Shown one piece after another: positions 7,272-63,333 of a stretch of 64,000 nt of DNA. Positions within the stretch are counted from its first letter, which is position 1. Each line of letters opens with the position of its first letter. This DNA comes from Marsupella aquatica (taxonomy: Eukaryota > Plantae > Marchantiophyta). The notes beneath the pieces are model-generated. The model saw only the letters and a program-made list of their open reading frames with translations. It had not been told where the DNA came from and searched no databases. Location: positions 1,130,917 through 1,194,916 of the forward strand of contig OZ316892.1 of assembly GCA_973895155.1 (NCBI GenBank). The letters run 5' to 3'. A program made the position numbers and the translations under genes.

Positions 7272-8220
7272 GATGCTTGGTTATACGAGCATTATACCTC
7301 TTTTAAGTGATTATCGAGTCGATAACCCTTCCGAACCTTCCGAATGTCACGTCCAGTAATTCTCTCTAATCCCCATTCAAGTCCATTTTTTACAACTGCT
7401 CCTCGAAACTCCCCTGTTATCCAGAGAGCTTCAGTGCAAAATTGTTCAATTCTAAAAGATTGGCACAAAATGACCATCAGTGGAAAAGAAAATCATATGA
7501 CTGCAGAGAAAATGAAAGAAGAGGCTCCAGAGAGCTGGAAAACTCCCGAATTGTTCAAACGGTAGACGCCCAACAATCCAAGCTTGCGCCATGATCTGAG
7601 GGCTGCTCGTCGGTCCCCATTGGACCAAAGACTGGAAAACAGGAACGATGGGTGTCAAAGGAGAAGAGGCAACCATTAGTTTCCGTCCAGGTGCATGCAC
7701 TTCCTGAGTTCTGATCAGGCCGGTCAAGTGGACTGTACTGCACTCGACCCCACATAGCACGGTCCTCTACGAAGCATGGCGAATTCATAGCAGGCAAGCA
7801 TTTCAATGCTTCAGTGGAAGACTTTCAAGGAAACGGAGTTTTCAGTTTGGAAGACACAGAAATTGACGAAGCTTGTGGGTCAGCTCAGTAAGTGGGACCA
7901 TCAGACGTATATGGACGACATATCCCCTGCAATTCGCACCAGCTGCCCGACAGACTGATGACCAAGGCCGCCAGTTACTCTGTTTCTAAATTCATAGAGT
8001 GAAGCTTTCCCCTCGTCTCACCGGCACTACTACAGTAGTTACGGGGCACAAAGCCTCAATGTTCATACATTGCACAAGAGAGCTGTAAAGTTAAAATGTG
8101 TCACGTGAGGTGTCCATTGCAAAGACGCCGATAAATAAAATGACCATGGATAAAGTAAATGCAAGATCATGATTAGAAATGGCCCATCTTTAGGCCCAAC
8201 TCGCATATCATGTGGTGGGC

Positions 8221-8443
8221 GCTATGTTTTTGTTTGTTTTTGATAAATAAAATTTATTCAAAACAAGGGCAAAGCCCCCCTAAACTGAGTGGCTAGGACA
8301 TTGCTGGTATTCTACAAAGAGACTAGGGAGTGCGCTATGTTTTTGTTTGTTTTTGATAAATAAAATTTATTCAAAACAGGGCAAAGCCCCCCTAACTGAG
8401 TGGCTAGGACATTGCTGGTATCCCACAAAGAGACTAGGGAGTG
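8221..8443. repeat. ~112-bp tandem duplication
   Basis: GCTATGTTTTTGTTTGTTTTTGATAAATAAAATTTATTCAAAAC...GAGACTAGGGAGTG at 8221-8333 and 8334-8443, near-identical. Confidence 0.9.
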
Positions 8444-8883
8444 ATTTTTGTGAAAGAGCTTTTAATCACTTTGCCACTAAAGATGTTCTAATCCGTAATA
8501 TTGTCTTTTTTGTATTTATAAAAATATCACGGTTTGGTATACGAATGAAAGTTTACCAAAGTAACCAGGGGAACTATATACAAAAATAATGACATTTTTG
8601 TAAAAAAAATAAAAATAGTGGCACTATTGCAAATTTAAATATCTTTAGCGACAATGTACTTAAAAGATGTTTTGTGAAAATTATGAATCTTCTTGTCCTG
8701 ATAAATTCTGTTGACAATTATCAATTTTTTTTTGTAATAAGAGGAACAAGGGGAATAGGGAGCAAAGCCCAGGAGCAAGACAAAAGGCACCAGCAGAAGC
8801 AGTAGTGCCCAAAGCCCCAGGCCCCTAGGTCATGACCTTGGGACGGGCATAGGTCCTAGTCAGCCACCTCTTAATGGGCAAAA

Positions 8884-8965
8884 GATGAACTCACCTATAG
8901 TACCACATCTAGTGCACTCTCTGGACATCTCACTAGATGGGCCTCCGTATTATAGCATGTTCATC
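8884..8965. repeat. Short palindromic element related to the outer arms of the 27687-28220 foldback
   Basis: GATGAAC...CCACATCTAGTGCAC...CACTAGATGG...GTTCATC. The same terminal motifs occur at 27687 and 28220. Confidence 0.55.
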
Positions 8966-9021
8966 CTGGAACATTTCTTGTTTTTTTTTCTTGTAAACAT
9001 TTTTTTTCTTGTAGTGATATG

Positions 9022-9314
9022 TGTTAAGTATTGTTTTTAGTCTTGTGACTCTATAGCTAACCGCAGTTAGTCTAACTCAGGTTAGAACTTAGCCAAGGTT
9101 AGCGGTAGTGCTGATGTGTATATAGCTAGAGCTGGTGCCAGTCCCTGGTGGATCTTCAGTTCATTGTTTGAGTTGGGCAAGAGAGAAGTAAAGGTCTCTT
9201 GCTTTCCCGTGGACGTAGCCTCGGTCATGAGGTGAACCACGTACTCGCTGTGTCGATTACTTTGTATGGTGTTCACATGTGCATGGTGTCTTAGGATAGG
9301 GATTATCCCCAACA
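9022..9314 (+). mobile_element. Solo LTR of a Ty1/Copia-type retrotransposon (293 bp)
   Basis: Starts TGTT, ends AACA, flanked by a perfect 5-bp TSD ATATG (9017-9021, 9315-9319). Contains CCCGTGGACGTAGCC...GGTGAACCACGTA, a motif common in plant Copia LTRs, and a TATATA box-like site. Confidence 0.88.
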
Positions 9315-13900: not shown

Positions 13901-14604
13901 TAGCTCTCAAATCAAACAAGGACTTATCTGCAACAGGATTGATTCACAAACCGAGCAAGAAAGACTTGGTTGGAACAGGATCAGCACTTAAAGCAAGCAA
14001 GAAAGACTCGCATGGAACGGGATTAGCACTCAAATCAAGCAAGGACTTACCTGCAACAGCATTGATCCAGAAATCGAGCAAGAAAGACTTGCTTGGAACA
14101 GGATCAGCTCACAAACCCAGCAAGAAAGACTTGCCTAGAACAGGATCAGCTCATAAACCCGACAAGAAAGATCTGTCTGAAACAGGAGCGGCTGACAAAC
14201 CCGGCAAGAAAGGCTTGCCTGGAAGTCAATCAGCTCACAAATCCAGCAAGGACTTGCCTGGAACAGGACCGGCTGACAAATCCGGCAAAAAAGATTTTCC
14301 TGGAACAGTGTCAGCTCACAAATACAGCAAGGACTTGCCTGGAGTAGGGTCAGGTCAGAAACCCGGCAAGAAAGACTTGCCTGGGACAGGATCAGCTCAC
14401 AAACCCAGCAAGAAAGACTTGCCTGGAACAGGATCAGTTCACAAACTGAGCGAGTTCAACGGACATGGATCTCTGCCTAGGGGTATGGGACCATCAGCTT
14501 TTGGTGCGGGCAGAAGTTGGGGAGGTATTCATGGGGCTCTGAATGTTGATGTTGTTGTTGTGGAAACGTCAACACCTACTCAGGCCGAAGGCCCTTTCAG
14601 GTAG
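10926..14604 (+). CDS. ASH2R: ASH2/TRAUCO-like COMPASS subunit (SPRY domain) with long C-terminal repeat extension, ~799 aa; exons 10926-11298, 12007-12633, 13205-14604
   Basis: SPRY motifs [76 protein letters not shown]. Phase-1 GT-AG introns join the three ORFs in frame. Acidic N-terminus followed by [14 protein letters not shown]. Confidence 0.9.
13660..14442 (+). repeat. Coding tandem repeat: 19 units of 14 or 13 aa (consensus K-[APS][11 protein letters not shown][HL])
   Basis: 783 bp = 14 units of 42 bp + 5 units of 39 bp, all in frame within the last ASH2-like exon. Confidence 0.95.
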
Positions 14605-33328: not shown

Positions 33329-33426
33329 AGTTTCGGTGAGATTGGATTTGCCGAACGAATGCTTAATCAATCCACAATCGTACGATGCAGAAAATATATG
33401 TGTAGATATGTTTCCTTATGTTTCCT

Positions 33427-33858
33427 GAGAGTTTTCCGACTGTTATGAGAGTCCACTTCACAGAAACAACCAATAGCAATCGTGAGTCAAAATTTCAATC
33501 GTCTCACTGACTCCACCACACATACAACACAAACAGTCAGAGCACCCTCTTCTGTGACTCGTTATCTGGAATGGATCGCTCACAAGAAAAAAAATAGCTT
33601 ACCAATGCCCCGTTGTCACTGCCTGTACGTCGACGAATGCGTTACCGGCAGCCTGAGAAAATGACACACAATCAACGAAAAGACTGAAAGAAAGTGATAA
33701 GTGATAAGTCGTTGTGATTCATGCTGTCGAATGGATTGTGCCCTAAAAGTTCGCTTAATGCGCTCCCGATTAATGTTGAGGGTTTACGGTTTAGGAAACC
33801 CTCAACCGCTCGAAGTCAACAACCGTAATAAATCCCTCCCAAACAATAAATCGAAACT
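33427..33858. repeat. Copy 1 of a ~430-bp dispersed duplication upstream of the SDR gene
   Basis: GAGAGTTTTCCGACTGTTATGAGAGTCCACTT...TTTCAATCGTCTCAC.GACTCCACCACACAT...GATCGCTCACAAGA...ACCGTAATAA..TCCCAAACAAT aligns with 34849-35265. Confidence 0.85.
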
Positions 33859-34450: not shown

Positions 34451-34848
34451 TCCACAACTTACTGGGTTTGCTTATTGTAACATTATTCTGAGCAACAATC
34501 TAGCCAACAGGACAAGCCGATTGGATATTGGACATTCTTGGGTTACTGGAACTGAGGGGCACTAGAGTCAATTACTCTTAAGTCTGGATTCATAACGTAC
34601 CTGGTTTCCCATTCAAAGATCTATCCAACGGTGCAAATTTGAGGAGAAGAGGTTTTCTAGTAACGTAGGGTGGCTTTATAGGGTGCATTCCTTTACAAGT
34701 CATGGGGGGCAGTTTCAGAAATTTTCTGTTGTAGAAGCTGTGATCAGGGCCATCCACTTGGGAGATAAGCTTCTGTTCACTTTACAAAACACTGGGAGCA
34801 GTTTTTTTGTCAATCGTACGATGCAGACACTACGGAGCTATGCTTTTT

Positions 34849-35265
34849 GAGAGTTTCTCGATTGTCATGAGAGTCCACTTGACAGACACAACCAATTGCA
34901 ATCGCATGTCATTATTTCAATCGTCTCACAGACTCCACCACACATGCAACTCCAACATTCAGTCCGAGAATCCTGTGACTACTTGTCTGGAATGCATCGA
35001 TCGCTCACAAGAGAAAACCTAGCTCACCATTGTCTCGATGTCGCGGCCCGTACGACGAATGCATGTCCGGCCCTTTTAGAAACTTCACACAGTAGACAGA
35101 AAGCCGACAGTGACGGAAAACTGACAATCATAAGTTACTATGACGGATGATCTGCAATGGATTGTTCGGAATAAAAACTCGCTACCAACCCTCTCGATGT
35201 CTTCGCTGCTTGAAGAAATGAATCTTATGCGACCGTAATAATCAATCCCAAACAATCAATCAAAG
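34849..35265. repeat. Copy 2 of the ~430-bp duplication upstream of the SDR gene
   Basis: Colinear, diverged match to 33427-33858. Confidence 0.85.
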
Positions 35266-42399: not shown

Positions 42400-44140
42400 T
42401 AGAATAATTGTATTTATAAAGCACCAACTACAAAGCTAGAGTTTGGGCGGAGTCTTCTAGAATGAAGTCTCTGATTGTAACTATATGGCTCATTATGTGT
42501 ATTGGAAAACTCATGACTACTAGGTATATCAAATGATAATCTTATTTATAAAACGGCAATTACAAGCTAGAGTTGAGGTCTAGGCTTCTAAAATGGAACC
42601 TCTAGACTGTAATTCCATGGCTGATCATGTGGATGGGAAAACTATGATGTCCGTCAAATGTCAAATGATAATCATGGATGTTTGTTTGTCATGTTTTTTA
42701 TTTATATTAAAAAATTGGCTCTATGGCCCAACCATATATATGTGCATACAAAGAAGGATGTGCTTAGGAAAGTGTATAGTTTGTTATATATGATTATTAA
42801 AATGATGAAATGCATGATGGTTTTTTAATCATTTAATTAACCTTCAAAAAATATAAATAATGAATTTATTTTGGTGACATTTTTATTACCCTCCCCTCTA
42901 TTCATGTTCAAAGAAGGGGTAATCAGGGCTAGTTAAATAGCAAATGAAGGTCCACTAATCACCTAGCCTCGTATTATTAATATTATTATACAGTACTGCC
43001 TAGTACTACTATAAGCACCTACCTGTGGTGGATAACATGGCAAACCTGCCTGAGAAGGTTTGGACCACATTTATCAAGTAGTGGATGGATTGAGCTTGAG
43101 ACCAGTCACAAGCAGTACTTTTTAATTAATAAAGTCGTTCATTCTTTCTTTTCTAAATGCAAAATTGTTGTTTACAAGAAGAAAAGCTTGCTGGCGCCCT
43201 GGAGGGAAACAAAGGCCCCAAGTGCTCCTTTTCCTGTCCATTTGATTGGTATAGAAGTGTTTTATTTCTCTGATCTTCATTATACCTAGTTTTAAGCTCT
43301 TTTAAAACTTCTCATTTCTAGTGGGGAAAATCTATTGTGACTTTTCATTTAAGAGTAAGATTCTTGTGACTTTGGCCTGTTTGCAACATGATTGCTGATC
43401 CCTCAATGCCACATTATAGGACATGTTGCTGCAGGACTCAAGGTAGTGAGGATGCAAGGACACACGTTATAGTGTCCTGGCGAAAGAGGCAGGAGGCAAG
43501 TTTTTGGGGCTGCACTCCAACATAGTGATGGAAGGCAGGACTGCATTGCTGCAAAGTACCAGCCAATATCCAGTCATATTGTCTGTGAAGCGCAAAAACC
43601 AGGCCACAAATGGTTTTAGTGGCTAAACCTTGGTAGATTCCACATCTATAAAATTAATGCAGATTCCCACCTAGCCACCAACCCCAAAAGCCACTAGATT
43701 CTAGAGAGAATCTGACAGGTACTTGATCTAGCAACTCCTAGAATGATGTATTGATTAGCTTGATTAATCAATCTAACAAGTCTGTACTTATTGAAGGGAG
43801 AGGTGATGGTCAAATTTGAATTAGTGAAAACATATAAGAATATTCTTAGCATCTTCTCCTTCTCGCAAGGTGACCTTGCACACCAGTTAAATAGAACAAA
43901 AGTTTAAAACCCCCATTATGCTGGTTGCAAGGACAGCCTGACAACTATATAACAACTATATAAAATATTGCAAAGAACAAAAGGTGCCATAGTGGGAGAC
44001 AACCTGAGACCATCTGGGCTATGGAGTTACCATCTAGAAACTTCACTCTAGAAGCCTAGCTCCTAACTCTGGTTTATATTTGGCACTTTATAAGTAAGAA
44101 TGAAACTTGTGATAAGTAATTTTCCCCATACCACATTTAT
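42400..44140. mobile_element. Degenerate ~1.7-kb element bounded by long inverted repeats; left arm tandemly duplicated
   Basis: ACAAGCTAGAGTTGAGGTCTAGGCTTCTAAAATGGAACCTCTAGACTGTAATTCCATGGCT (~42562, with a second copy at ~42430) matches the reverse complement of 44017-44100 (GCTATGGAGTTACCATCTAGAAACTTCACTCTAGAAGCCTAGCTCCTAACTCTGG). Confidence 0.55.
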
Positions 44141-46654: not shown

Positions 46655-48491
46655 GAGCCTTTTCGTGCGCAAGTCCTTCAAGCTTATAATTGTTGTTTGG
46701 ACATCATATTAGAAGGTGATAGACCGCCTTTACACTGGAAATAATTGTTGCTTATTTATTAGCATGTTCATGATTTGGGCACTAAAATTCATTTGTGAAA
46801 GGAGCTTGAGCTCAATTTAATCCCCGAGGAGGAAAATCAACAGTAGGCTACTCTATCTTGATAGCCAACTGGTAGACGACGATAAGCACTTCATTTTTAC
46901 CCTGCTTTCAATGTTGAGGCGAAGGCTAGATTATTTTTTAGCCACTTATTCAGAGACTGACAGCAATCACTTGCCTAACCTGTTTCTCAATCCCATCAGA
47001 AATTTGGTGGTCACTGCCTTACATAGAGAATTTAAATCAGATCTTGCTAGTGAGTCTCATATTTCCAAATGAAGGACTCTGCGGAACCTTTGTACATTGA
47101 TGGTCCCACCATGGCCCTAATGGGTCCCACCGTAGCCCTAATGGTTGCCGTGGACATAATATTCATTCATTCGATATATCTTATCTCTAAAGAGCAGCGC
47201 TTGAAGTTCCTAAGCGTAAAGCTTATTTATTCGAATCTCATATTGAGAAGCATAGACGATTTGTCATGGAAATGATTGCTACTTGTTTTCTAACATCTTC
47301 GAGATCTGGTCATTAGAATTGGCTTACAGAAAGATCATGAGTTCAAAATGAGTTTCTTGAAGGAAATTCTTCAATCGCGAAGCTCCGAGGACTAATTTTA
47401 CCGACGCTGGGTATCTAAACGTGTATTGCACGAGATTCTATTTGCTACTTTTCTTGCAAGGGTGTACCTCGAGTTTAGATGAAGCGTAAGAAGGCGCTTG
47501 TGTCGATGCAAATGTTAACCTGGTAATTGTTGATTCATGCAGAAAATGAGAAAACATAGAAGAGGTGATCTGAGAATGAGTAAAAAATGGAAAATTGAGC
47601 TTGTGATGGAGCAGTTGGTGAATGTGCATTTTAAGCTCGGGCAACTTTTGATGGCACAAACCGGTGCTGGGCAATATGCACATTCTCCGTTGTAGTTTAA
47701 GTCTGATATTTTCAATGTGAGCCCTGTTCGTTTTCAAATTATGCCACATATCTCAGATTTTTGCTTTTCGCATCCAGATTCTTGTTCCTGGGATTTAATC
47801 TCCACTCTCCACGAGCTGAGCTTCCAATTTAGCATATTCTGAGCTTTGCACAGATCACGCTCAGCAGGAAGGAAACCAACCGGACCAGACGCTTGAGAGA
47901 AGGGCCAGGCAGGTTGATAGGAGCATGAGGTCAGTAGGCAGAGAATTATGAAGTTAGCCACTCACAGCCCACCCCACATCCTCACACTTCAAGCTTCGTC
48001 TCATACTCTTCAGCTATCTTAGTTAGAAGACACTTGATTGATGTTGTCAGAACAATCGGTACAGGGTCTGGAGCAATTTGCAGGCATCTTACCATCTTAC
48101 TGCCATTTGACAGCCAGGGCTAAGTCAATACTCCAAAACTTATGGCGTTCTATGCTCCAAAGGTGTATTCATGCAAGAGATTCATTTCTGCGGGGTGGGC
48201 CCCCACTCAAACTGTTGAGCAGGGACTCGAACGGGTACAATCAAACAGCGCCAGTCTGCTTACTTGGTGCAGGGAAGTGATTACGCATCGAGTGCAGATC
48301 ACCAGGGGCAGATAGCAATCTGTGTTTGGCGTTTCCCAGCAGCACAGCAGCACTTACACTCGGACTGGATGGCATTCGTCATAAAATTGAACCACCACCA
48401 GAATTTGCGTGAGATGTGTGTTAGGCTGAAAACCTCTTATGTGTTCCACAAAAGTTGGGAGAAGCAACAAGTTAATTTTTGTTCAAAGCAG

Positions 48492-48920
48492 TATGTATAA
48501 ATGTTAAAATGGCCATGTACTCCAAACTTGAAGGCAGAATATGGCGTCAAAAGTCTGATGGCTGAAAACTTTTGGGACATAATAATCTTCTTACAACTTT
48601 TGGGAGATAAGCCCTCATCAGAGGGAAACATTATGTATAAATGTTAAAATGGCCATGTACTTCAAACTTGAAGGCAGAATAGGGCGTCAAAAGTCTTATG
48701 GCTGAAAACTTTTGGGACATAATAATCTTCTTACAACTTTTGGGAGATAAGTCCTCATCAGAGGGAAACAGTATGTATAGAATATTAAAATGGCCATGTG
48801 CTGCAAACTTGAAGGCAGAAAAGGGGATCAAAAGTTTTCAACAGTTTTATGGTTGAAAACTTTTGGGACATAATATTCTTACAACTTTTGGGACATAATA
48901 TTCTTACAACTTTTGGGAGT
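48492..48920. repeat. 140-bp tandem repeat, ~3 copies
   Basis: TATGTATAAATGTTAAAATGGCCATGTAC...GAGGGAAACA units start at 48492, 48632 and 48772. The third copy degenerates into shorter ACAACTTTTGGGACATAAT repeats. Confidence 0.93.
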
Positions 48921-49322
48921 TAAGATTCCTACGGGCGGGTATTTAGATAGCCAGTAAGGAGTATGTCCTGGTCATATAAGAGTTGTATGTCGGCATGCTT
49001 ATTTGTTTGTGCAGGAATAGATGTAGGCTTGAATATGTTGAGTGTATCAAGGTGAACCTTCCACCGGTGTCTTGGGTGCAAGAAGTTGGAACTTTACCAG
49101 TAGCCTGGGGTAGGAGTGGATTGAGACCCCGACGGGCACTGAAACTCCTGGCCCTCAAGGCAGAATCTTGCATCCTTTGTTATAGTATATGTTATTATTA
49201 TCTGAAATTTAAAGAATCTTTAATTGACATTTGAATACCTGAGAGAAAAGTAACTAAATCCTTAACTATCTCTGCCATGTGAAAATTAAATCCTTGCAGA
49301 CAATGCAAACTCTTCCCTTTTT

Positions 49323-49503: not shown

Positions 49504-49626
49504 TAAATGTGGGGGAATAATTTACAAGTCCATGACCAGTGAGAAGGGACAGAAGTACCCAGACACCCAAAACTAACGTAGTTTAACTTCACTGTGGTTA
49601 ACTTGAAGGCAGAATTATTATTCTTA

Positions 49627-50215
49627 CTAGCTCAATACCCGTGCGTTGCACAAAAGAAGTCAAGTCGGCCAAAATGTCGTTAAAAAAAATGTTGTTTCGG
49701 CCAAGAGGTCGTTGAGAGAAAATATGTCATATCAGCCACGAGGTCGTGGAGAGAAAAGATGTCATGTCGGCCAAGAGGTCGTTGAGAAAAAATGTGTCGT
49801 GTTCGCCAAGAAGTCGTTTGAGAAAAAAGATGTCATGTCGGCCAAGATGTCGTCAAGAAAAAAATTGTCATGTCAGCCAAGATGTCATTGAGAAAAAGAT
49901 GTCGTGTTGGCAAAGACGTCATTGAGAGAAAAGATGTCATGTCGGCCAAGACATTGTTGAGGGAAAATACCCGTGCGTTGCACAAAAGATGTCGTGTTGC
50001 TCAAGATGTTGTTATGTGAAAGATGTCATGAAATAAAAAAATGTTATTAAGTAAAAAGAAGTAATTTTGCCAAAGATGCCATTATGTGAAAGATGGTGAT
50101 AAGAAAAAGGTGTCATTTTGCCAAAGATATCGTGAAGTAAAAGATGTTATAAGAAAAAAGGTGTTGTTTCACCCAAGTTGTCGTTATGGGAAAGATGTTA
50201 TGAAGTAAAAAGTCA
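49627..50215 (-). mobile_element. Helitron 3' terminus followed by a ~35-bp minisatellite
   Basis: Minus strand reads GTGCAACGCACGGGTATTGAG-CTAG|T, the plant Helitron subterminal hairpin plus CTAG before T. Interior ATGTCATGTCGGCCAAGA(G/T)GTCGTTGAGAAAA repeats. Second hairpin copy at ~49967. Confidence 0.75.
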
Positions 50216-50227
50216 ATGAGAGAAGAA

Positions 50228-52360
50228 GCCATGTAAACGGGCAATTCACTCAGCCTATCCATTTATTGCGAGGAGTTCGACAAGGCTGTCCCCTCGCCCC
50301 ACTGGTTTATGCATTGTCCACCCAGCCCTTGATGGATTTCTTTGATGCGGCGCTCTTGGCAGGTGAGGTGCATGGTATTAAGATAAACAACGATCTTACC
50401 CTTGTCCATCGTTTTTTTGCTGATGATCTCAGAATATACACCCCTGCAATGGAATCCTGTTTTCTGGAAATTAGACAAAAGTTGGAGATTTATGAGTTAG
50501 CTGCGGGAGCAAAATTAAACTTAGAAAAGACAGAGGTCTTTACTTTCTGTCTAGAATCGATTCCGCAATGGCTAATAGACTCAAATGTTATTGTTATCCC
50601 GCATGGACAGCTTTCGTGCTATCTTGGAGCTCCGTTCGGACAAGATATATCCAACCAACAGATTCAAGATTTTTGTATGAAAAAACTTAAGAATCGGCTC
50701 TCTAGCTGGTCTAACAAAAATTTCTCCTTCACCGGACGGGTTCTATTGGTAAAACAAGTTTTGTTATCAATGACCGTTTACCACATGATGTATACACGTA
50801 TAGCTGGTAGCCTCTCTAACATGATTCGACAGACATGTAAAGACTTCCTTTGGGGTTATAATAAAGATAGTGGTCGAAAAACACCTCTTGTTTCTTGGGA
50901 ACGTATGTGCTGCAGAAAACAGGATGGCGGGCTTGGATTTAAAGATATCCAGACTCAAGCTTCGGCCCTGCTTGCTTGTTGGTCGGTTAGAATGATTACT
51001 GACTCATCTTCGGATTAAGCACTACTATTCTCAGCTAATATTCGTTTGGTTGCATGGAAACAGTCGGTTCTCCTCAGAACATCGGGATACACTCCAATGG
51101 ACAGATTCCTGTTCTCAACCCCATCGAGCTTTCGTGGAATGAGATATACCGAAGGATTTGGAAAGCATGGATTCAGATTCGGGGGAACTTGCACTGGAGC
51201 TCTTCCTCTCTCGCCATTCCTGCTCGATGGCGCATAGCAGACCTCCTCAGAATATACTTTCGCACTCATTGTTTCCCAGCTCCAGTTCTTCCTCTCATTA
51301 CTTCTGCTTGCTCCCGATTAAATATTCGCTGTGTACTAGATCTTTGGAACACGCATTCAGGTATCTGGATTGATTTTTCGACCAGGATCTCTAGGTTACG
51401 TGGACTAGGGGCTTCGAATATCATTGTTCTTACCAACATACTTCGGCTTTTTCAGGATGGCCCTCCACCATCAGGTTCTTCCTCCTTCGTTCCAACTCAA
51501 TGGTTTTGGAAGGGACTCAAAAATCACCACTCCCACGGGTTCTCAGTAGCGTTCAGGCATATAAATTTATTGACCAATCTGACGCAGACTCTCGTTCGCT
51601 GAACATCAGATGGGGCTCCTCAGATTCCCCCTCCACATGGCAAAGGAGATGGAGGCGGTTATGGAGATCAGATTTGTCAAATCGTGGGAAAAATTTTATA
51701 TGGCGGGTCCTGGCTGCTGGTCTGTTCACTGGCAGGAGAGCATTCCAGTGTGGTCATGGGGATGGAATGTGCCCCCTTGGCTGTGGCATCCCCGAAGATA
51801 ATAAGCACATATTTTTTATGTGCACTCAAGCCACAATGGCCTGGAACCGGACTGCCTGGTTCTACGAACGGGCTTTGGCTGTGTCTCTCCTCCTGGGTGG
51901 TCATTCCTTCACCTCCTTTCTTGACCTGGCTCTCGGTCGTTCCCCCAGCCTCTCCGCCCGTCTATTTGTTATATATCAAACTTTGTGGTTACTCTGGAAA
52001 AATCGTAACTCCCACCAGTTTCAAAGTCTATCAGTTATTTTTTCTCCTTCTATAGCAGCATCTGCAGCCGTTGTGCATCTACGTTCAGTAGCAATCAGTT
52101 CAGATTCAGAAAAAAAGAAAAAAAGGTTATACTACGCAGAGAAATATATATCACGTCCTTTATCATATCGTTTTCCTAGCTGAATCACTCCAGCTCCTCC
52201 TTCCATTGTGTATTAAGTAAACTCTGACTTCCATTCAATGTATCCATATCCCTGGGCCCTCACTCTTAGTATATTAAGTGAACCCCCCTGAGAACAGACC
52301 CCCCCCTTGTACCCCTTCTTAATATTTTTTTCTTCATTAAAATATCTCTTGTTAATATAA
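50228..52360 (+). mobile_element. 5'-truncated, disrupted L1-type LINE (RT C-terminal half plus zinc-binding domain)
   Basis: HVNGQF...RGVRQGCPLAPLVY, FFADD, GAKLNLEKT, YLGAP, GRVLLVKQVL, FLWG, VSWERMC...GGLGFKD; then F.WR and CPLGC...EDNKHIFFMC. Stop at 51016 and frameshifts between ORFs 50266, 51054 and 51500. AT-rich tail ~52350. Confidence 0.92.
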
Positions 52361-52716
52361 AAATATTAATTTTTACTATTAAATTTGACCCTTATGTAAC
52401 TTATAAAAGAGGTTTCCAAATAATTGAAAACACCCTTGACTTTTTAAAAGTATGAATGCTATATAAACATGCAAACGATTCAGAATCATAAATATAGATT
52501 ATGCATATTGATATTGTTTTGCATCAAAAACTTGATCTTACACAGGCTACACCTTTTATATAGGTAAACAAAACTAGTACCAGATAATAATATATCAGGT
52601 TACTTATAGACATCATGCCGAAAGGTGAACTAAACTAATACTACATCTAAGAAAGTGAATATGATGCTCTAGTACCCTGGAGGAACAATTGCATATACAC
52701 TCATGCTAAATTCTTC

Positions 52717-52816
52717 CATCCTGAGCTAACCAACCAGGTAATGCCTTCATCCTGAGCTAACCAACCAGGTAATGCCTTCATCCTGACCTATCCAAACCAG
52801 GTAATGCCTTCATCCT
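52717..52816. repeat. 31-bp tandem repeat, ~3 copies
   Basis: CATCCTGAGCTAACCAACCAGGTAATGCCTT repeated. Confidence 0.92.
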
Positions 52817-53141
52817 TCACACCAAATGATCAGCAAAGTTCTTGGCAATTTCTTCTGAACCTGATTTATCAAACCACACATTAATAATTGATTCTAGACA
52901 ATACTCATAACACAAGGAAATCAATACTGAGAAATATGGGAGTAATACCATAACATCTTCTTTGACTGAAATTGTTACTTAGACATGGTGGATAATTTCC
53001 CTGTCAACTCTGTGATCCAACAAGGATTGAAATATCAGAGGCAGGATCAAAATCTCATTCAAAAGCCTTTCATAGCAATCAGAAACTTAAAAGATACATG
53101 CATAAACACTGAAAATTGCTTACCCTGTTACATATATAAGA

Positions 53142-56100
53142 TTACTGAATTTTGTTTTTGGCAAAATTATCAAGAGAAACTGCATCATCTGAATGCAATT
53201 GAAAAACTCCTGGGCATAGTGGATCCACTGTCAAGTGGACTGTTGATATGACACAGTCCAAATCGATAAATTGTGGATCACACACATTGTAGGCAAATTT
53301 ATGCCTACTAGTTCCAATTGGAGAAAACCATTGGAACATAATTTTACATGCCTCCTCACCACCAGGCCTATCAAGCAAATCCAATTCACCTCTTGCTCTG
53401 TCCTGTTTCCCACCATATTTTTTGTGTATACTTTGTATTCTGCCTATCCACCACATATATTTTGGTGTTGTAGTTGAATACATTGCCACAGCTGCACCTC
53501 TTGGCCTCTTCGGATTTGGAACAAAATCATCTGATCTGCTGCTTCCTCGCTTTCTTTGTCCTTTTCCTCTCAATGTTCGTGAAATTGCTTCTGAACTTCT
53601 AGTTTCACGAGCACTGTATGTATCATCCAAGAATAGTACTCCACAATCTGAACCTACTGTTACAAACATTGTTTGAACACCTGCCCTAACATTGGGTTTG
53701 TCCACTAAATTATTGAAGTAGTGATTTTGCTTTATCCGAGTCAATCTGTCTTTGCTGAGGAGAGGGTTGTGGGTCAGTTGGCTGACCAAAGTACTTTTGT
53801 AAATGGACCGATTTTGGTATTCAACGGTTGGCTTCACATCTTGTGTTGCTGCTCCATATATCAAGTCAGAATGCATGATCCCCATGGTGGCCTCCATTTG
53901 AGCAGCAACTCCCTCTACATCTGGGTCTGCATATATCAAAAGTGGTTCTGTTGGGACAGGTAACTCAGAGTCCTCAGGCTCTACAACTTCTGTTGAAGTA
54001 GATGAGGATGCAGGCTCATGAGAGGTTGTTTCACCTTCCTCAGATTCCTCCACATCTACCCCTCCATCTACTAATGTATCAACATTCACATCACACCAAC
54101 TACCAAACTTGACCCCTTTAGCCTCCATCTTCCATGGGGAATTCCACCACACCTTGTCTTTGCAAGATGTGGAAGGGTTCATTTGTAATTCAGTGCATGC
54201 ATTTTGGGCAAGCTGAAAACCTTCTTGCAGTGCAATCACTATTTCTCCATTGGTTTCAATCCCTATATAGTCCATTTGATCTGCTACAATAGGAATTCCT
54301 GCTGGGATTGTAGTGAGCTTCATCCAAATGTTTTCATGTTTCTTGTGACTCTTCCCTGCACCCATCATTCCTTCTGCCAGATCCATTGCAGCCAATCGAT
54401 TTCGATTGGTAGCACATTCTACTAACTCAGCCAAGTCATAACTTCGTTCATGACCATTCATACCTCCTACAGCAGAAAAAAACTGCTCACAAGCATCTGA
54501 CCCAGTCAAATGCAATGGCACTGGAAGATGTCAAAAATTGTCCCTGAATTGGATTACCAACAGGACCACAAAATGAACTGACATCTGAATGTCAAGGAAA
54601 CTTTGCATGGGAATGCAATTTTTTGTGAAACTGATTGGTTGTGTATTCCCTCCCACTGAATGGTTTCCATGAAAGCACCATTGACGCCATAGTCTAAAGA
54701 AGAACCCCACCTTCCCACAATGGACAATCCTCTGTCGCAAACTCAGACTAGTATTCAGAAATATGTCAATGTAGTCTGCACATATCCTAGTGTAAACTTC
54801 TGTCCCAAGAGTCTGTTCAACTCTTGCATCACCACGTTGGTGAAGCATCCGTAAGGAGGACTGTACTTTGCGACTACAGAGTCGTTGTGCACTAGCCCAA
54901 TTTTGTCTGTCTTTCCTTGACTTGTCCTCTTCATTCAAGCCATGATCACTGTTCAGGTACACTTTGTAACAGGATATGATGTGACTCAGGTTTGCCATTT
55001 CTGCTCCTAATTTCAAAATACGAGAAGTAGAATCCAATGGGTTCACTAACTTCTTCCCATTATGAATAAAATCTTGATCATGCAATCCATATGCATGGAT
55101 CAATGGTCCAGTAGTGGTCATAGAGTGGGTCAATTTCCAAGCTTCCCACCTTAGGTCCTGCCTTGGCCCTGGTATTCCACTTCCAGAGTAGTCTTCCAAC
55201 ATAAGCTTTCTCCTTCGTGCATCCCCATCGCTTGCATGACCCAATAATGGCCCCACAGACTCTAGGCAATGAGTTGTCCATAGTGAGGCTAGGCTGTTCC
55301 ATTGTCGCCTGACCCATGGAGCATCAAACTTGTTACAGGTGCCCATCCCCAGTATGCACAATCGAGGGAATCCAGCAACAAGGGCATTTACTATCAAACA
55401 CCTTGCCTAGTGAGCTATAACATAATTGTCAAATGCATCTGCAATGTTGTTGAAGCCAACTTCTCCTTCCCCCACTATGATCTCCAAGCCAACACTGCAC
55501 TCATGATCCTTTTTTGTCCCACAAAATCCAAGAAGAGTATCATGTTTTGGCAGCCATCTGCAACCAATAGCAGGTGGCTTCTTCATTAGTTCTTGTTCAA
55601 TATTTTTGTGTAGCACAAAAATACATACTGAAGGAAAAGAATGACTAGAGCAAGAGGAGGCAGTGAATAGTCACCTCACAATCCTCTTCACACAAGTCTC
55701 GTCCTCTGCCAAAAAGCATGGAATGGGTCCATGTATATTTAATCGAGCCTTCAATTTGGAAAATACTTCCGCAATAAACTGAAATTGCTCTACATGAATT
55801 CCAGCACGAAACACTACCATGCCTCTCTTATCCCTTTGAAGGGTGTTGAGAGTGGGACCAATTCCATTGGTTGCAAGACAATCAACTACACGTCTTCCGC
55901 CATGTAAAAACAGTGTTTGGCAAAAAAGTTTTGTTCCAGGCCTAAAACGATATCCTGTCTTCTCCCTATTGATGTTCTGTGCTATGTCTGATAACATATC
56001 CCACAGAGCTCCTCTCCCACCAAAGGCACCTCATTTGTGTGCCAATATTATTGAATGACAGAATTTCAATACAGTTGCTTTGTTTGGTTCCTCATAGTGA

Positions 56101-57848
56101 AGACACACTTCACTAATGCTGGGGACCAGAGCCTTTGCCATGAGTAGCTTGTGACTCAAGATTCTCTGTAACTTTCGTTCTCTCAAAATTTGGTTCCTAT
56201 AACTTTTAGCTTGGTATTGGACCTCTGGAATAGTCAAATAGTCTAAGCGCCTACCTTTACCAGTAGTTCTACAACCTCTTTTTTCAAGAGCTTTGTACTC
56301 CCTGTAAACTCTGAGTCGAAAGTCCTGCTCTGTTTTTATGCTAAAACATTGCGTACAGGATAAGTCTATAAACCCACCACCAAGTTCCGAAATTCGTCTA
56401 CACTCTCTGTGTCTAAATAAACCAGAGATCACACAGTTTTCCTGAGTCGTCAAACACCACACCTCTGCCCTCACTATGGGCTCCGCATACCAGTTCCCAT
56501 CTAATTTAAGCTAATCATTTAAAATTTCCTTGATAGGCCTGGTATCTGAACCATATTTCACCACATCACGCCAGAGACCCCAGCATAGCAAAGAGAGATT
56601 GTCAAGAGTACCTTTGTCTTTTGAACTAGAACTGGAAGCTCCTCCAGTTGAGGGGCGAGTTAAGAACCCAGCTATTTTCTGTTGTTTCACATCCCTTCCA
56701 TCTGGTGCACGAGGTCTTCCAGGCCTTCCACTGTGCACTGGGTTACCCCTAGCAGGCTTTTGACTTCTCATGACATAGTTAAGATGACTTAAGCCTCCCA
56801 CATGGGCTTCCAAATTTGTTTCCAAATTGCGTTGTTTTGGAATCAATGTCAAGTTTTCAGCACAAAACTCACAACGAAGTTTGAACTTCATCAACTCTAG
56901 GGGCTCTTTGTCCACATCACCTATTACTGTAAAGGTATCACACCCAACAAGCCCACCAGCAATTTGTGCTGAGTTTATCTTCTCCACAATCTTGACATGT
57001 TGATCAAGTATGGCTCTATCATTCAGAGTACAAGCCTCAGCCCTCTGAGAAATCTCTCTGTGATCCACTTTCTCACCCCTATTAGATGCTACACGTCGAG
57101 CATGCTTTTTTGATGGCAAATGTTTCACTCTGAAGTTTGTAAACACATTATTGACCATAGTTTTATCCACACCCTTGACACTGCTACATGCAACTGCTTG
57201 ATATCTGAAGTCACATTCACAACACTCAATATGCCCACGAGGCACACCATCCTTGTCCCAGGTTCTGACTTTCCATTTGTGGTCCACACACTTAATAAAA
57301 GTCATCCACTCTATCAACTTCGTCACAGAAGTCTCCCATGCTATTTTGAGGTCATGAGACATTAATTCAGACTCTAGGCTGACTTGTGATTCAACTTCCT
57401 GGGATGGGGCTCCACCAATAGGCTGGCCATCCTGGGATGGGGTACTTGCAGGTTGGGCCTCCTGAGATGGAGCTCCACCTACATGCTGGTTAGAGGGTTC
57501 ATCTATTGTGGGAGTACCACAAGATGTGCTACCAGGTCCATTGGATGCATGGCTACTTCCAAGGACTTGTTGTGACCCATTCTGCACATCTCCTTGGACA
57601 AAATTGTTGGGGTATTTTGGGATAATGACAATCTTCCCACCACAATCCTCTACCAGATTATACCTCTCAAATTTCTCCAACATTCTACAAGCAAGGTTGA
57701 TGTCCATGAAATGGAACTCGAAGTCAAAACCTGACTCCAAGTTCTTTCTAGCATCATAAAAGGTTTCACCTATCTTGTAGCTATATGATGTCAGGGGTTT
57801 CCGTTCCCCTGACTCAGAGTCTGCTTGAAATACAGTGGCAGGCGGCAT
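53142..57848 (-). pseudogene. Large P-element/THAP9-like DDE transposase gene (~1530 codons; exons 57848-55675, 55557-53142) with four in-frame premature stops
   Basis: ORFs 57848, 56474 and 55997 share one frame, as do 55397 and 54521. A 117-nt GT-AG intron (55674-55558) restores VR|WLPKHDTLLGFC. Motifs FLAEDET, HASDG, QDFIHNGKKLVNPL, DRQNWASAQRL and GSDACEQFFS match the order of P-superfamily catalytic motifs. N-terminal Cys/His motifs. Confidence 0.75.
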
Positions 57849-59514
57849 CCTCTATGTCCAACGTTAATTCCCTAACCAATTGACATATGCTAGGGGCATA
57901 GGCCTGCAAACATAGCACAAGACAAGAGAGAAGCACCACAATCAAAATGGACACAATCATAACACTTCAACCAATTATGGGTTACTTTGTAACGACCCAT
58001 TCAATGACATTGCTCAACATGGGGATTTGGGAAGTTTTGGCCTCCTACAAGTAGCCCAAGGAAGCCCATATGTCAAGACCGCATCCACCAGACCAATTCC
58101 ACAAGGGCCTTGCCCCATCCCGGCCATTTCTCATGGTAATTGGCTTGTCTAAGATCCATTGCAGCTTTCTCCTTTCGGGTGGGAAGGGACGTACCCTTTG
58201 CATGCAAGGACTCTGGTTTCAGCGTAAGCACAAGAGAGTATGAGATCTGCACATGGCCATTTAAGCTTGTCCTGAATTAGCTTGTCCCAACATATTAGCT
58301 TGTCCCAGTCTGTGCTTGGTCCATGTGCAGTCGGGGCCAGGCCCATCACTCCAATCCCTCTCCTCGACATGTGCAATGGGCTGATCAAAATTTATTTACT
58401 CACAGACTCGCTCAGAGAGGCTCGACCATTCATGAATAGCAACATTCCATGGACCACCCAAATCCTATCTGGCAAGGCTCTAAGCAATCTTCCCCCCCCC
58501 CCTCCCAGGCTACCTGCACCTGCTTCGCCTCCAAAGAGTGCTAGATTGTCAGGGATGAAATCTGACAATCTCCACTGAGGGCATTACTTCCCCAATGGTC
58601 TCCTTGGATTTGATGGGACCTGCAAACGGTCCTACTTCTACAACAGAAAGACAAAGCCTAATTCACAAAACATAAAGAAATGCTTACCTGAGCAAACACA
58701 CAAAGCCCTGTTTGTAAGCGGATTCATACAAGACAACAAGCATGAATCGACAGTACAAGAGACAACGTACAATCAGGAATGCAGGGCAAAATGAAAGTAG
58801 GGCATCTGACTGCAAGAAGAGGCACCACTGATTCTTTACTTACTTGTGTATTTGCATTGGCTGCTTGAACGGGTCAGGGACGGAAACTAGATCCACATTG
58901 GAAGTCGACAACAACAAGCCTGCTCCAGACAAACAACAATGAATGAATGGAGATGCAAAAAGCATTAGCCACAGTCCTGGACTTCTTGGCAGTTGACAAA
59001 ACAGAGATAACAAGCAATTAGAAAACAAACCTGTAATATAGTATAGAAGTGCCGAGAATAACTTGACCAGGGGTGGCATTCATTGATAGTATTCTAATCT
59101 TGATTAAACTTCAAGACCTGTACAAATCCACCAACAAAGAGAATCTTACAAAATATCAACAGGATACCATAGCTTAGCATCTATAGAACTACGATAATTT
59201 TAGTCCTGCTACCTGCCAAAAATACCGGCCAACTACTGTACGTTGGCGTCAAGTTGTGGATACCAAGGTAGAGCAGCTGGAGACTTGGAGAAAATTGATC
59301 TCATAAACCAGCGAAAGAGATAGTCTGCTAGACTGGGCAAAGTTGGACTGAGCCGGGGACAAGTCCAAACCGGGTTGAAATCACTTGGAGCCCTCTACAG
59401 TCTCCGAATAAAAGAACACTCCCCGGATGATTGTGTCTAGGAGGCAGAGAGAAGGCGAAGAGAATATAGGAAGCGGTGCTCGATGAGATCTACAAAGCTG
59501 AAGGAAATCGAGCT

Positions 59515-59870
59515 ATGGCTGCTGCGTCCCTGATCTGCTGCTCCAGCAGTTTGCTTCGCCACTCGCCCGCCCTTTCATCACCTTCTTTCCGTGCGAGAGC
59601 GACGTCCTCGTCCTCCTCGTCCCCCTCAGCGCTCGCCTCTTTGAGCTCGGCTTCATTTCGTGGGGTGCACAACTACAACTTGTCGTCAAATACTCTCGCG
59701 CGGTGGCCATCTTTGGAATTTTGGTGAGAAAAGTCTTGGCAATGAGGGTACTAAGCATATTATACTAATTCCTCCCTCGTTGTTGGGATTGTCGGAGAGG
59801 AACTGCACGCCGCTAGAGCTAGGGACTGTTCCTCTGTCTGAGGAGGAAGCCATGGCATTGCTTCGCAAGG
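59515..59870 (+). pseudogene. Gene fragment encoding a plastid transit-peptide-like N-terminus
   Basis: MAAASLICCSSSLLRHSPALSSPSFRARATSSSSSSPSALASLSSASFRG is Ser/Ala/Arg rich with no acidic residues. I could not splice it to any downstream coding exon. Confidence 0.4.
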
Positions 59871-62800
59871 TCTCTACGCTGAGCCTCACTTTATATAATA
59901 GTGTTTCTAGCTCAATTCTCCCAAAATGATTGGCCATTTGCTTCTGGGTTTACCGTTCAGTGTGACTGGTTGCAGAGAAGCAATTGAAAGAACAATTGCA
60001 AAAATATGTGACCTTCTGACGACAGTGTTAATTCAGGTATTATTTCAGCACAAAATAATTTCATGTGAAATCAAGTCTGTTACGATGACCGGACAGGAAT
60101 TGTAGGGTGGAGATTGGCAAAGGCCGACAATGGACTCAAAATCTGGACTGAATGGAAGCTGAAAGATTTTGGAGCTGGAATTTCGCTTTTCGATCGGATT
60201 GGAGCTGTCGCTGAAGTTGAAGGGCATTACCCAAAACTTCATCTTCAAGGGTTAAACACAGCTAGAGCAGAGCTCTTTACCTAGTCCATAGGTACGGTTG
60301 GACCCTGAACTGATACGTCTGGACTGCTCTATGTATGTTAATTTAATGAATCTCGCAAGATTCATGTCATGTGGATGCGGCTCGCCTCAAGCATCACCCA
60401 CTATGGCGATCATGGCACGCATGTTGTAGACTTCAACTACACTGATGGCATTCCGAGAATAAACAATTTTACCCAAAATTTGACAGACAACAAGAACTTA
60501 AAGAACATGCCTGGGAATGGTGGAAACTTCACCTTCCATAATGAGACAAAAGCAGAGGTTGTGGAAGTCAATTTGGAACCTGCAAGGAACACGTAACAGT
60601 CACTGCAATCCCAAACGTAGTTGGAGCGATATGTTGACCAAAAGAAGGCAATGCAACGGAGAAGATAGCGAAGACTGAGGCTTTAAGACAATGGTAGACT
60701 TAGAGGCACAAAAGGCATAGAATCAATGCAGTGGTACACAACTAACAAAGTCGCGCAGTATGCAATGCGCAATCATCAGATCCAAGTTGAGGAAATGCAG
60801 AAGGGTTTACAGTGTGATACATTGAGGAATATAGTGGCTTACATCTGTTTTTGTCAAACACGCCGACCGTCCTTCAATGAGAAACTGTCTTCTAGCTAAT
60901 GTAACTCCGACTAGATCCTGTCATGTACGCAGTGACAGTTAGTTACTAGATATTATTGGTCAATATTCTAACTGAGTAGAGATAACTGAGTGTTGTCACA
61001 ATGAAATTGTCCATACTTGCTGACCTCTTTTGATGCCACACACTCTTCCCTGATTCTCGATCTACCTCTCTCCCCTACGTTTAGCTCTTCTCCTCTGTGG
61101 CCCGTAGCCTTTGACAAACTCCTGTCGGGACTCCTGCCTGCCTTCTTGCCTAAGGCAAATCCTTCAATGAATGAAGGAATTAATAAATCATGCAAGGAAT
61201 TAATGAATGAAGGAATTTCCAAATAGCCACAGAACGCAACTCTGTGACAAGGTGAGGAGGAGTGACGTACGGTGGTGGGGACGAACACGATGGCTGAGCA
61301 GTGCTTGACGGACTGGTTCCCAACAACGAGGCTATCCTTGATCACATACAAGAGGTTCTTCCTGTGCCTCGTGCCAAAACTGTGCTTCTCACTAATGGGA
61401 TTGTTTACTGTCATCCTCGACAAACATGTTCGCCAGCAGTAGCAAAGCGGAAGCGCGCCATCACAAACTTTGGTCTGGTCTCAATGAAATAGAACATTCC
61501 CAAGCAAAGCAAATGAAGAGCTACTTCAGTGCTCTTTACGTTACTAAATAATAGGAAAGCTATGGAAATGACGTTGGGCTCAGAAAATAGATAGCCTGAT
61601 CGAAACAAGGAAAACATTGACGCAGACCACACATTCTATCTCTTTCGCCACAAAACATTCTACGAGTACACTGTAAGCATTGTTGCAGACAAGTCAAGCC
61701 CAACTCCTCGACACAAACATCACAAATGGAAGAACTGTTTGTTGAAAAGTCAATAGCAACTCACTTGTTAACATGCAATTATCGGGGCAGTTCCGGGGGC
61801 AGTTCAAATGAATGATTGGACTCAACTGCTGCCGTTTTGCGTATTGAGGGCTCCTTCCCCTCGTCCTTCCCTCAATATTCTTTACAATGTTTGGGTCCTC
61901 GTCATCTTACAGCATTACTCCTTGCGCACGCCACGCCATGCCAAGCCATCGATTGATCGCTGTCCCGGGTCGCTGTCCAAATGCAGGTTACTTCGTTGCT
62001 GGCTTCATTGCAGAATGGATTGCTTGCAATCTGCAATAAAAAAGCTCATCTTCAGAAGCATTTCGCTGCTTTTTGGCAAAACACTTACATTGACAAAAAG
62101 AGATCATGCAAAGCAATACCTTCCAAGCTCGAGCATCTTCCTCTGCAGTTTTTGCTTCCTGCACTTTGGCTTTCACCGAGTCCACCAACCAAAAGCCCTG
62201 TGTGAGAACATGTGCAAAAACTGTCAGCTACACAAGACTGAAATAAAAACCCGCCTTAAAACCTGTATCAAAAGAGGTTACATCAGATCACGGCATGTAC
62301 ATGTTAATGCAACCGCGCAAAGTAGCAAGCCCGGGGTAGCAAGAGGGTGGCATGCACTCACTTTGCCAAGCGAGGAGCCGAAAGAATAAGTTCACTGTGT
62401 GCAAGAGCAGAGAATACACACGGGACGGACCCTGCGTGTAGCCTAACAAACAAACATAGCTATGGCGGGTCTGAAATCCAACGCCGCATGCAGCCCAAAC
62501 CCTGGCCCAAACAAGCAAATGATCGCTATGGCCAGTCTAAAATCCAACGACCTAAACTGCAGAGAAGCAGGGGGAATGCAAGGGAGGGTCACGCAAACCC
62601 TGTTGTGTGAACCCCAATGTGGCCAGCCCCTGATACCTCCCTCACCCCAATGATAAGGGAGTACAAACCCCCACCCCACACACACAAACACACCTGGCCG
62701 TTTGATTGAACCCATTTCAAAAGTAATCTTGTTTGTTTATGTGCTATGGAGGGGGTATTGATCCATGGTCCCCATCAATCCCCCATCAATCCCTAAACCC

Positions 62801-63333
62801 CAACCCCCGCCCCAACCAAGTTGGACCCAAAGATCCCGACCCAACATTTACTCAACTCCCGACTCAACTCCTATTGTCTACTAAAACCCATTTGTCCCAC
62901 CATAAGGGGGCACACAAACTTGTCTTAGGAGAACAAATAATTAAATGTGTGATTTACTATATGGACAGGTGTGCCAATGAAGTCATGACACGTGTACCAA
63001 CCATATAGTGACGTGTGTCCTTGACATTTTGGGTACCCTTGCATAAGAGTAATGTGACATGTATTTGATAAGAGCCTTATTACTAATATTGTGTCAAATG
63101 TATATATAGGGATGTTGCCGACTTTAAAAATTATTATGAAAATTAGTTTGCATTACATTAAAAATACCCTTGCGTCGTTCGCACGTCCTCCCTGTATTAG
63201 TAACGCTAAGGGCCCAGGGATCCATATCCCCCTGGTTATTTTTTCCTATGTTTTTTACCCCTGGTGAGGTACACTATCAAGCTATTCGTGCTCCTAGTCC
63301 ACGATTCTCTCTTTTCGCACACCCAGTCTATGT

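Follow-up and report, generated by a model that had tools for sequence, protein, structure and literature searches.

A decayed DNA transposon of probable P type, carrying host DNA, in the liverwort Marsupella aquatica

We analysed a stretch of 64,000 nucleotides from the liverwort Marsupella aquatica (GenBank assembly GCA_973895155.1, contig OZ316892.1, positions 1,130,917 to 1,194,916 of the forward strand), called here the window and numbered from its first letter. It very probably holds a dead, 10,970-bp copy of a DNA transposon whose transposase has a predicted P fold and which likely belongs to a deeply diverged branch of the P superfamily. The ends of the element, its target-site duplication (TSD), an intron and stop codons in the transposase gene, conserved D/D/E and DxxH residues, multicopy relatives and a piece of cargo DNA were all observed in the sequence. 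The structure model predicts a core of the P type, in which a helix-turn-helix (HTH) is followed by a split RNase H fold with a helical insertion.

Ends, size and copy number of the element

The element spans positions 52,250-63,219 and is framed by an 8-bp TSD, ATCCATAT, the two copies of which lie at 52,242-52,249 and 63,220-63,227. The flanks match over 8 bp and over no other length between 4 and 12 bp. Terminal inverted repeats (TIRs) of 11 bp lie directly inside: CCCTGGGCCCT at 52,250-52,260, on the 3′ side of the transposase gene, and its partner at 63,209-63,219 on the 5′ side. The repeats are perfect over these 11 bp and loosely alike over the following 45 bp or so. Within the window, the sole inverted partner of CCCTGGGCCCT is the one ending at 63,219. 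The combination of an 11-bp TIR and an 8-bp TSD appeared once in 60 Markov-simulated windows.

An earlier description of the stretch, made from its letters alone (the sequence-only reading), had reported a P-like transposase gene at 53,142-57,848 and had proposed a search for TIRs and a TSD of 7-8 bp. Both were found in the window itself, and the element proved to extend far beyond those coordinates.

Contigs assembled from public sequencing runs (X1-X4) provided a view of other copies. At position 52,250, contigs of other loci stop exactly and have mutually unlike flanks (eight in X1 and five in X2). Summed contig depth, which does not equal copy number and was followed up to position 62,000, is raised between about 52.2 and 58.75 kb relative to the adjoining low-copy stretch, approximately 3-4-fold in X1 and 10-fold in X3. 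The element is multicopy over its transposase part.

At the 3′ end, the summed depth of the bin 52,154-52,407 is 1,093 / 4,809 / 6,348 / 2,889 versus 126 / 182 / 1,071 / 648 in the next bin. The first 200 bp or so of the 3′ non-coding arm (52,261-53,141, minus strand) are common to many more loci than the body, likely as parts of non-autonomous derivatives. This arm also contains three tandem units of about 31 bp at approximately 52,732-52,816.

On the other side, multicopy sequence continues upstream of the start codon over 57,849-58,750 (minus strand), with depth raised through the bin 58,504-58,757 and then dropping. This region is likely the promoter and leader of the transposase gene; Pfam gave no match for its three short frames. 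It includes a 70-bp segment (58,076-58,145) which is common to several loci with other flanks and forms the depth peak of the element body. An Rfam search of 48-64 kb, this segment included, returned only one sub-threshold match at chance level. Occurrences of CCCTGGG at 27,420 and 29,018 were considered as a derivative of the element and rejected, as they have no flanking duplication.

The transposase gene, its intron and its decay

Between 53,142 and 57,851 on the minus strand, six stop-to-stop open reading frames (ORFs) adjoin without a break, all in one frame. Splicing out a 117-nt GT...AG intron (55,674-55,558) leaves exactly 4,590 nt, or 1,530 codons. The transposase frame contains five stops, the terminal one counted, versus 58-112 in the other five frames, and therefore it is not a product of chance. 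The sequence-only reading had joined the six ORFs into one frame of 4590 nt. Its single frame, intron and length all hold, but four stops persist after splicing, so the frame is not open. The six motifs which it quoted were all found in the spliced protein in the stated order, and its estimate of about twice the length of the Drosophila P transposase was accurate (1,529 versus 751 aa).

Exon 1 occupies 55,675-57,848 (minus strand) and starts with an ATG that corresponds in the alignment to Met1 of P0002, an intact protein from Calypogeia fissa. Exon 2 (53,142-55,557, minus strand) encodes the remaining RNase H fold, the helical insertion, an acidic linker and a C-terminal barrel, and ends with a TAA stop. 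The intron between them (55,558-55,674, minus strand) lies about ten codons past the first catalytic Asp and has an in-frame TGA at its start.

If translated, the intron forms a 39-residue insertion in the window protein; none of the 28 other rows of alignment A1 has this insertion, and its residues have a predicted local distance difference test score (pLDDT) below 50 in the structure model. One relative, L001, has a GT-AG intron at the identical codon, while L005 and the other compared loci have none at this site. Judging from these comparisons, the intron of the transposase gene is real.

The four nonsense codons, all on the minus strand, are TAG at codon 446 (56,511-56,513; Q in P0002, P0078 and P0079), TGA at codon 606 (56,031-56,033), TAG at spliced codon 775 (55,407-55,409; Gln in close relatives) and TGA at spliced codon 1067 (54,531-54,533; R, R or Q in close relatives). 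Three of them (446, 775 and 1067) are explicable as single C-to-T changes, given the residues present in close relatives. At position 55,409, every covering contig in runs X1-X4 has a non-stop base. The observed/expected CpG ratio is 0.24 in the transposase gene versus 0.60-0.85 in four host ORFs, and from this depletion we infer long-term methylation and decay. By its sequence, the window copy is a pseudogene, dead and without evident function.

Fold and catalytic signature of the core

For the core we used an AlphaFold2 model of residues 447-1568, built from a 40-row alignment with X at the breaks (mean pLDDT 76.5, predicted template modelling score 0.73). At E<=0.001, Foldseek matched it only to two entries of the Drosophila P transposase (E 1.9e-7). 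Among 48,161 chains compared with VIA-align, the P transposase 6p5a came first, with Z 24.4 and a root-mean-square deviation (rmsd) of 4.4 over 418 of 442 residues; the next chain scored 8.8. The stretch that superimposes, in this predicted model, on P transposase residues 128-569 (HTH, split RNase H and insertion domain) is encoded at 54,372-56,075 (minus strand).

A further structure comparison yielded Z 11.0 for Transib, up to 9.9 for RAG, 8.9 for ISCth4 and 8.2 for Hermes. Over all comparisons, Hermes (hAT) ranged over Z 7.2-8.2 at rmsd 7.6-8.1, and ISCth4 (Mutator/IS256) over Z 7.2-8.9 at rmsd of about 6-7. The sequence-only reading had named a structure search as a check of its claim; Foldseek and VIA-align place the core with P, and hAT and Mutator are far weaker.

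Across the 40-row alignment, the residues expected of a P-type active site are conserved. The first putative catalytic Asp, D716, lies in AEDET (55,701-55,703) and is kept in 39 rows, as is the second, D835, in ASDGD (55,227-55,229), with a gap in the one remaining row. A DxxH signature follows (D887 and H890, 55,062-55,073), each of its residues being present in 38 rows with two gaps. Finally, a D-x-x-E motif (54,486-54,497, spliced numbering) contains the putative catalytic E1082, which is E in 37 rows (three gaps), and D1079, which is D in 35 rows (two N, three gaps). All of these are encoded on the minus strand.

This order is the same as in the P transposase, where it reads D230, D303, D339xxH, D528 and E531 (PMC7776569, PMC8230255). 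D1079 takes the position of P D528, which is a GTP contact (PMC7776569), and a [C/D]xxH after the second Asp defines the P superfamily motif (PMC8230255). The 8-bp TSD falls within the range of 7-9 bp reported for the superfamily (PMC3698922, PMC8230255, PMC10824691).

Among transposase families, Pfam searches of the window pieces and of the tested relatives matched only those of P and none of hAT, MULE, CACTA, KDZ or Plavaka. Of 21 further proteins, 4 matched PF21787, namely one Adiantum protein below the cut-off and three Nymphon models above it, the latter in stretches that coincide with the family-profile matches. PF12017 was found in 2 of 39 proteins (one above the cut-off) and PF21788 in 1 of 27, at E 0.13. 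Nearly all family members escape the Pfam P models. The fold, the D/D/E and DxxH residues, the 8-bp TSD and the weak P-specific Pfam matches in a few relatives uphold the P-like assignment of the sequence-only reading.

How secure is the assignment to the P superfamily?

A number of observations weigh against this assignment. In the structural alignment, no more than 11-15% of residues are identical to those of the P transposase. Searches of the PDB by sequence or profile gave no match for the transposase, and P-family Pfam models matched none of the 6 window pieces and none of the 29 members of A1. The triad is spaced by 119 and 247 residues versus 73 and 228 in the P transposase. Mapping the GTP contacts K400, V401 and N447 by eye gives no identical counterpart, and just 28 of 40 rows have D or E in the D444-like column. 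The structure comparison set a predicted model against the PDB, and the matches listed contain no Kolobok, Novosib, Academ, KDZ, Dada or Zisupton transposases. In relatives, TIRs and a TSD occur together in only 1 of 41 loci (L006), and L002 has TIRs without a duplication. Additionally, P element termini begin with CA by the Repbase convention, and those of this family are CCCTGGG, CTCGGGG and CCCGGGG. The catalytic residues, the fold, the TIRs and the TSD agree with a P element, but a THAP domain and the CA terminus are lacking; therefore, this is not a canonical P element.

One alternative is a separate superfamily sister to P, with the core fold in common but with its own termini, its own DNA-binding domains and possibly its own cofactor need. 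We consider this improbable. The near invisibility to P Pfam models, the lack of a PDB profile match, the distinct termini (CCCTGGG or C(C/T)CGGGGGG), the missing THAP domain and the 3,609 clusters found at E<=1e-10 would all suit such a superfamily, but they have to be set against a Z score of 24.4 across the whole HTH-RNaseH-insertion core, the 8-bp TSD, the D-x-x-E and DxxH motifs in place and P-specific Pfam matches which are weak but correctly placed. The difference between the two readings is also partly a matter of naming.

Very improbable, in our view, is that the element belongs to another DxxH/CxxH superfamily (hAT, Mutator, Kolobok or Novosib) or to Transib/RAG, the P match being an effect of thin structure sampling. 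It is true that hAT and MuDR elements also produce 8-bp duplications, that Transib, RAG, ISCth4 and Hermes reach Z 8-11, and that Kolobok and Novosib are missing from the comparison structures. Nevertheless, P leads by 13 Z units, and the Pfam matches are to P families only, with none to hAT, MULE, CACTA, KDZ or Plavaka.

Least credible of all is a domesticated host gene, a host gene read through its stops or edited, or a set of stops that are assembly errors: 4.6 kb without a frameshift, a kept intron and a window base at 55,409 that occurs in none of the covering contigs would fit, but the intact TIRs and TSD, the multicopy state, the strong CpG depletion, the fit of three of the four stops to C-to-T changes and the standard code of the neighbouring host ORFs speak against it.

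Accessory domains around the core

The protein is predicted to have several domains outside the core. The model of the N-terminal part begins with a beta-grasp domain and a disordered linker; next come two alpha/beta repeats, then a Cys/His-rich beta domain and finally a long helix. The beta-grasp (aa 1-80, 57,609-57,848, minus strand) is predicted to be ubiquitin-like (UBL), with pLDDT 92-97 and a match to a USP7 UBL at Z 8.2, rmsd 2.5 and 77 aligned residues. Each of the two alpha/beta repeats (aa ~154-363, 56,760-57,389, minus strand) carries a CxxC...H..H pattern and they are probable zinc fingers by the model, with a weak fold likeness to HPF/pY (Z 7.0). The Cys/His-rich beta domain that precedes the coiled coil (aa ~417-520, 56,289-56,600, minus strand) has conserved C/H columns in the alignment, is present in the model and probably binds zinc; by Pfam, it is not a THAP domain.

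Pfam found no THAP domain in the window pieces or in the relatives, and the THAP Cys/His pattern is not present in the window protein, in agreement with the remark of the sequence-only reading that no THAP domain was obvious. THAP structures were not among the fold matches of the N-terminal model, which by itself does not exclude one. Since the THAP domain is described as animal-restricted (PMC7776569), it does not define the whole P superfamily.

At the other end of the protein, model residues 946-1110 (53,181-53,675, minus strand) are predicted to form a BAH/Tudor-like barrel. The DNMT1 BAH1 domain matches at Z 7.0 and rmsd 2.8 over 81 aligned residues, and many BAH, chromo and Tudor rows score Z 5.5-7.0 in VIA-align. 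These are middling scores, and a likeness of fold does not by itself indicate function.

Some relatives have further domains: P0027, P0029, P0107, P0113 and P0040 include members with an extra Tudor (two of them), SAP or C1 domain and, in the EukProt entry, a weak match to an N-terminal PB1, itself a beta-grasp. The architecture of the five proteins suggests that accessory domains are modular across the family.

Relatives of the element

A first search recovered 40 proteins among 5,791 candidates, and a profile search 51 among 7,992 scored. With an exhaustive search, the number of clusters was 6,496 at E<=0.001, 3,609 at 1e-10 and 1,122 at 1e-30. The closest named relative of the transposase is from the liverwort Calypogeia fissa (66% over the core). 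Identified members come from liverworts (Calypogeia and two Riccia species), a fern (Adiantum), a brittle star (Amphiura) and a sea spider (Nymphon). The family is thus wider than the bryophyte one which the sequence-only reading had suggested.

A quick unrooted tree was built from 82 core sequences, after removal of 22 partial proteins, among them all those of Riccia and Nymphon and the EukProt entry. In this tree, a 45-row group with a support of 100 in the Shimodaira-Hasegawa-like approximate likelihood-ratio test (SH-aLRT) contains the window, Calypogeia and Adiantum, and Amphiura falls outside it. By these sequences, the pattern fits an old land-plant clade; being unrooted, it has no bearing on transfer.

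Element ends were sought in 41 of 76 metagenome loci. In L006, a TIR of 26 bp and a TSD of 8 bp accompany an open frame of 1,520 codons; L002 has a 15-bp TIR and an open frame of 1,517 codons, with no matching duplication. Like P0002, these two are relatives with full-length open frames. The inverted contig ends of L045 are apparently an assembly effect, and paired ends are absent from the remaining examined loci, many of which are short contigs. Single ends of the C(C/T)CGGGGGG type were found in L008 and L035; contig L022 starts with a similar G-run. The L002 relative (308-9065, 8.8 kb) is longer on its 3′ side by 3.3 kb. This addition, possibly cargo, holds a frame of 174 codons that Pfam does not match.

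A prokaryotic or viral origin was considered and rejected: the one GTDB match is a 2.1-kb contig of a metagenome-assembled genome with scores identical to those of one marine metagenome locus, and it is a probable binning contaminant. A search of viral contigs gave no family match.

Cargo and the remaining 5′ arm

Upstream of the transposase gene, the element contains a damaged fragment of a host gene like that for pterin-4a-carbinolamine dehydratase (59,515-60,291, plus strand; PF01329, E 6e-8). It is 85% identical over 59 aa to the Calypogeia protein P0080, the single match among 15 candidates. Compared with this 236-aa protein, exon 1 has a frameshifting deletion and exon 2 a TAG (60,282). 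The N-terminus is Ser/Ala-rich, and the last exon is not present in the window. An intron is kept, starting at 59,870, which indicates that the capture took place at the DNA level. The fragment presumably resembles the chloroplast RAF2-type proteins.

Depth is low over approximately 58.76-61.5 kb. From 59.25 kb on, the CpG ratio is host-like (0.54-0.74), in contrast to 0.07-0.35 in the multicopy part. This also applies to the rest of the 5′ arm (60,292-63,208), which is low-copy to about 61.5 kb. Short interrupted frames on the plus strand at 60,342-60,899, 3′ of the cargo, may be a second captured gene piece; they have no Pfam match. With regard to a second gene encoded by the element itself, a tblastx comparison of the non-coding arms with the 76 loci gave no match at E<=1e-4, and Pfam was blank on the short frames.

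Proposed mechanism and its implications

With high probability, the element works like P. The binding and pairing of ends, excision by DDE residues and insertion with an 8-bp stagger are all part of P biology (PMC7776569). An intact transposase would dimerise through its coiled coil; for binding the ends, it would use the HTH and the zinc-finger-like region instead of a THAP domain. Excision would be carried out by D716, D835 and E1082 with two metal ions, and joining to a target cut 8 bp apart would produce the 8-bp duplication.

The host DNA would have been taken up at the DNA level, the copy then moving as one 11-kb unit. The cargo indicates that an element of this kind can carry host DNA. 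After insertion, it would have decayed mostly by C-to-T changes at methylated sites. Were the intron retained, translation would halt just past the first Asp, and the product would be limited to the DNA-binding half of the protein. Such a product, proposed here from sequence, would resemble the 66-kDa P repressor (PMC7776569).

The P transposase is the only transposase known to require GTP (PMC7776569). By analogy, we lean towards a use of GTP as in Drosophila, with the nucleotide bound by the insertion domain. Whether this chemistry is ancestral could be tested with a relative that lacks THAP and is 11-15% identical. That the BAH-like barrel steers the element to chromatin is speculative, and we regard it as rather doubtful. 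For a cut-and-paste transposase, the presence of such a domain would point to a route of targeting.

Tentatively, and at slightly less than even chances, the family may be an undescribed, eukaryote-wide branch of the P type. It would comprise thousands of clusters, in liverworts, ferns, marine invertebrates and others, which profiles miss. Its members would have CCCGGG/CCCTGGG termini, ubiquitin-like and zinc-finger modules in place of THAP, BAH-like chromatin reading for the choice of targets and a capacity for host-gene capture. If this is true, the branch would merit its own name and offer a second, independent system in which to study the ancestry of GTP in P transposition.

Other features of the window

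Immediately beside the element lies a broken sequence like a long interspersed nuclear element (LINE), at 50,209-52,183 on the plus strand (RVT_1, zf-RVT). Its last frame stops 66 bp short of the P-like element, which may have struck the 3′ tail of the LINE-like one. Further to the left, an array of ~35-bp units (49,626-50,205) reaches a summed depth of 8,356 in X1 and 83,027 in X3. Its left edge at 49,626 is sharp, the flanks there being unlike, and it represents a very abundant dispersed repeat. A unit of about 140 bp is present in three tandem copies at 48,486-48,924.

A 554-bp non-coding element at 2,988-3,541 has 11-bp TIRs, CAGCCATTTTT, a perfect 8-bp duplication, CACTGACC, and two 95-bp repeats. 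It resembles a miniature inverted-repeat transposable element and is of the hAT or canonical P type. Diverged direct repeats at 33,417-33,633 and 34,839-35,058 (about 1,422 bp apart, 79-84% alike) are possibly long terminal repeats of a small retroelement. An inverted 97-bp pair at 42,525-42,621 and 44,018-44,114 (70% complementary, 1.4 kb apart) is possibly an old TIR element.

Host genes include a SULTR4-like sulfate transporter (5,427-7,280, minus strand; 617 codons without interruption), whose match to the solved structure of plant sulfate transporter 4.1 has E 7e-226. At 12,003-14,604 on the plus strand lies a SPRY-domain gene, the second frame of which has a long Lys/Gly/Ser-rich tandem repeat with units of 42 and 123 nt. 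Several further host genes in the window also have long intron-free frames.

Comparison with known systems

The element shares with the Drosophila P element (6p5a/6pe2; PMC7776569) the predicted HTH, split RNase H and helical insertion, with a coiled coil before the HTH, as well as the D/D/E triad, DxxH, a D at E-3, short TIRs, an 8-bp TSD and an intron whose retention would shorten the protein. It differs in size, being 11 kb and 1,529 aa versus 2.9 kb and 751 aa, and in its TIRs, which are 11 bp and start with CCC versus 31 bp (PMC7776569). It also differs in the missing THAP domain, in its UBL-like, zinc-finger-like and BAH/Tudor-like extras, in the longer D-D spacing and in its cargo DNA. 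Cleavage in the P superfamily is staggered by 17 nt, and the perfect TIR here is only 11 bp long.

Galileo, 1360/Hoppel, the P element of D. buzzatii and THAP9 have the same catalytic signature (PMC3698922, PMC8230255, PMC10824691). All of these are animal, bear THAP and are seen by Pfam P models, unlike the present family, which those models mostly miss and which is present in liverworts and a fern.

Transib/RAG1, hAT (Hermes) and IS256/Mutator (ISCth4) have the RNase H fold and a helical insertion in common with it (Z 8-11), but they superimpose far more weakly and none of their Pfam families matched. Pack-type elements such as Pack-MULEs capture host genes. Like them, the element contains an intron-bearing, truncated host fragment inside TIRs and a TSD; unlike them, it is P-like and has a full-length transposase gene as well.

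A full-text literature search, outside which lay Repbase, Dfam, subscription journals and supplements, found no description of this lineage, nor of P elements from any liverwort, moss or fern. Recently active TIR elements have been screened for in 1,007 plant genomes; P was among the 17 profiled superfamilies, and only seven others were reported (PMC12973397). Old copies lay outside the scope of this screen, which used Pfam profiles at E<1e-5. None of the plant members that we tested reached this threshold with a P Pfam model; therefore, land plants appear to hold a P-type lineage that annotation misses.

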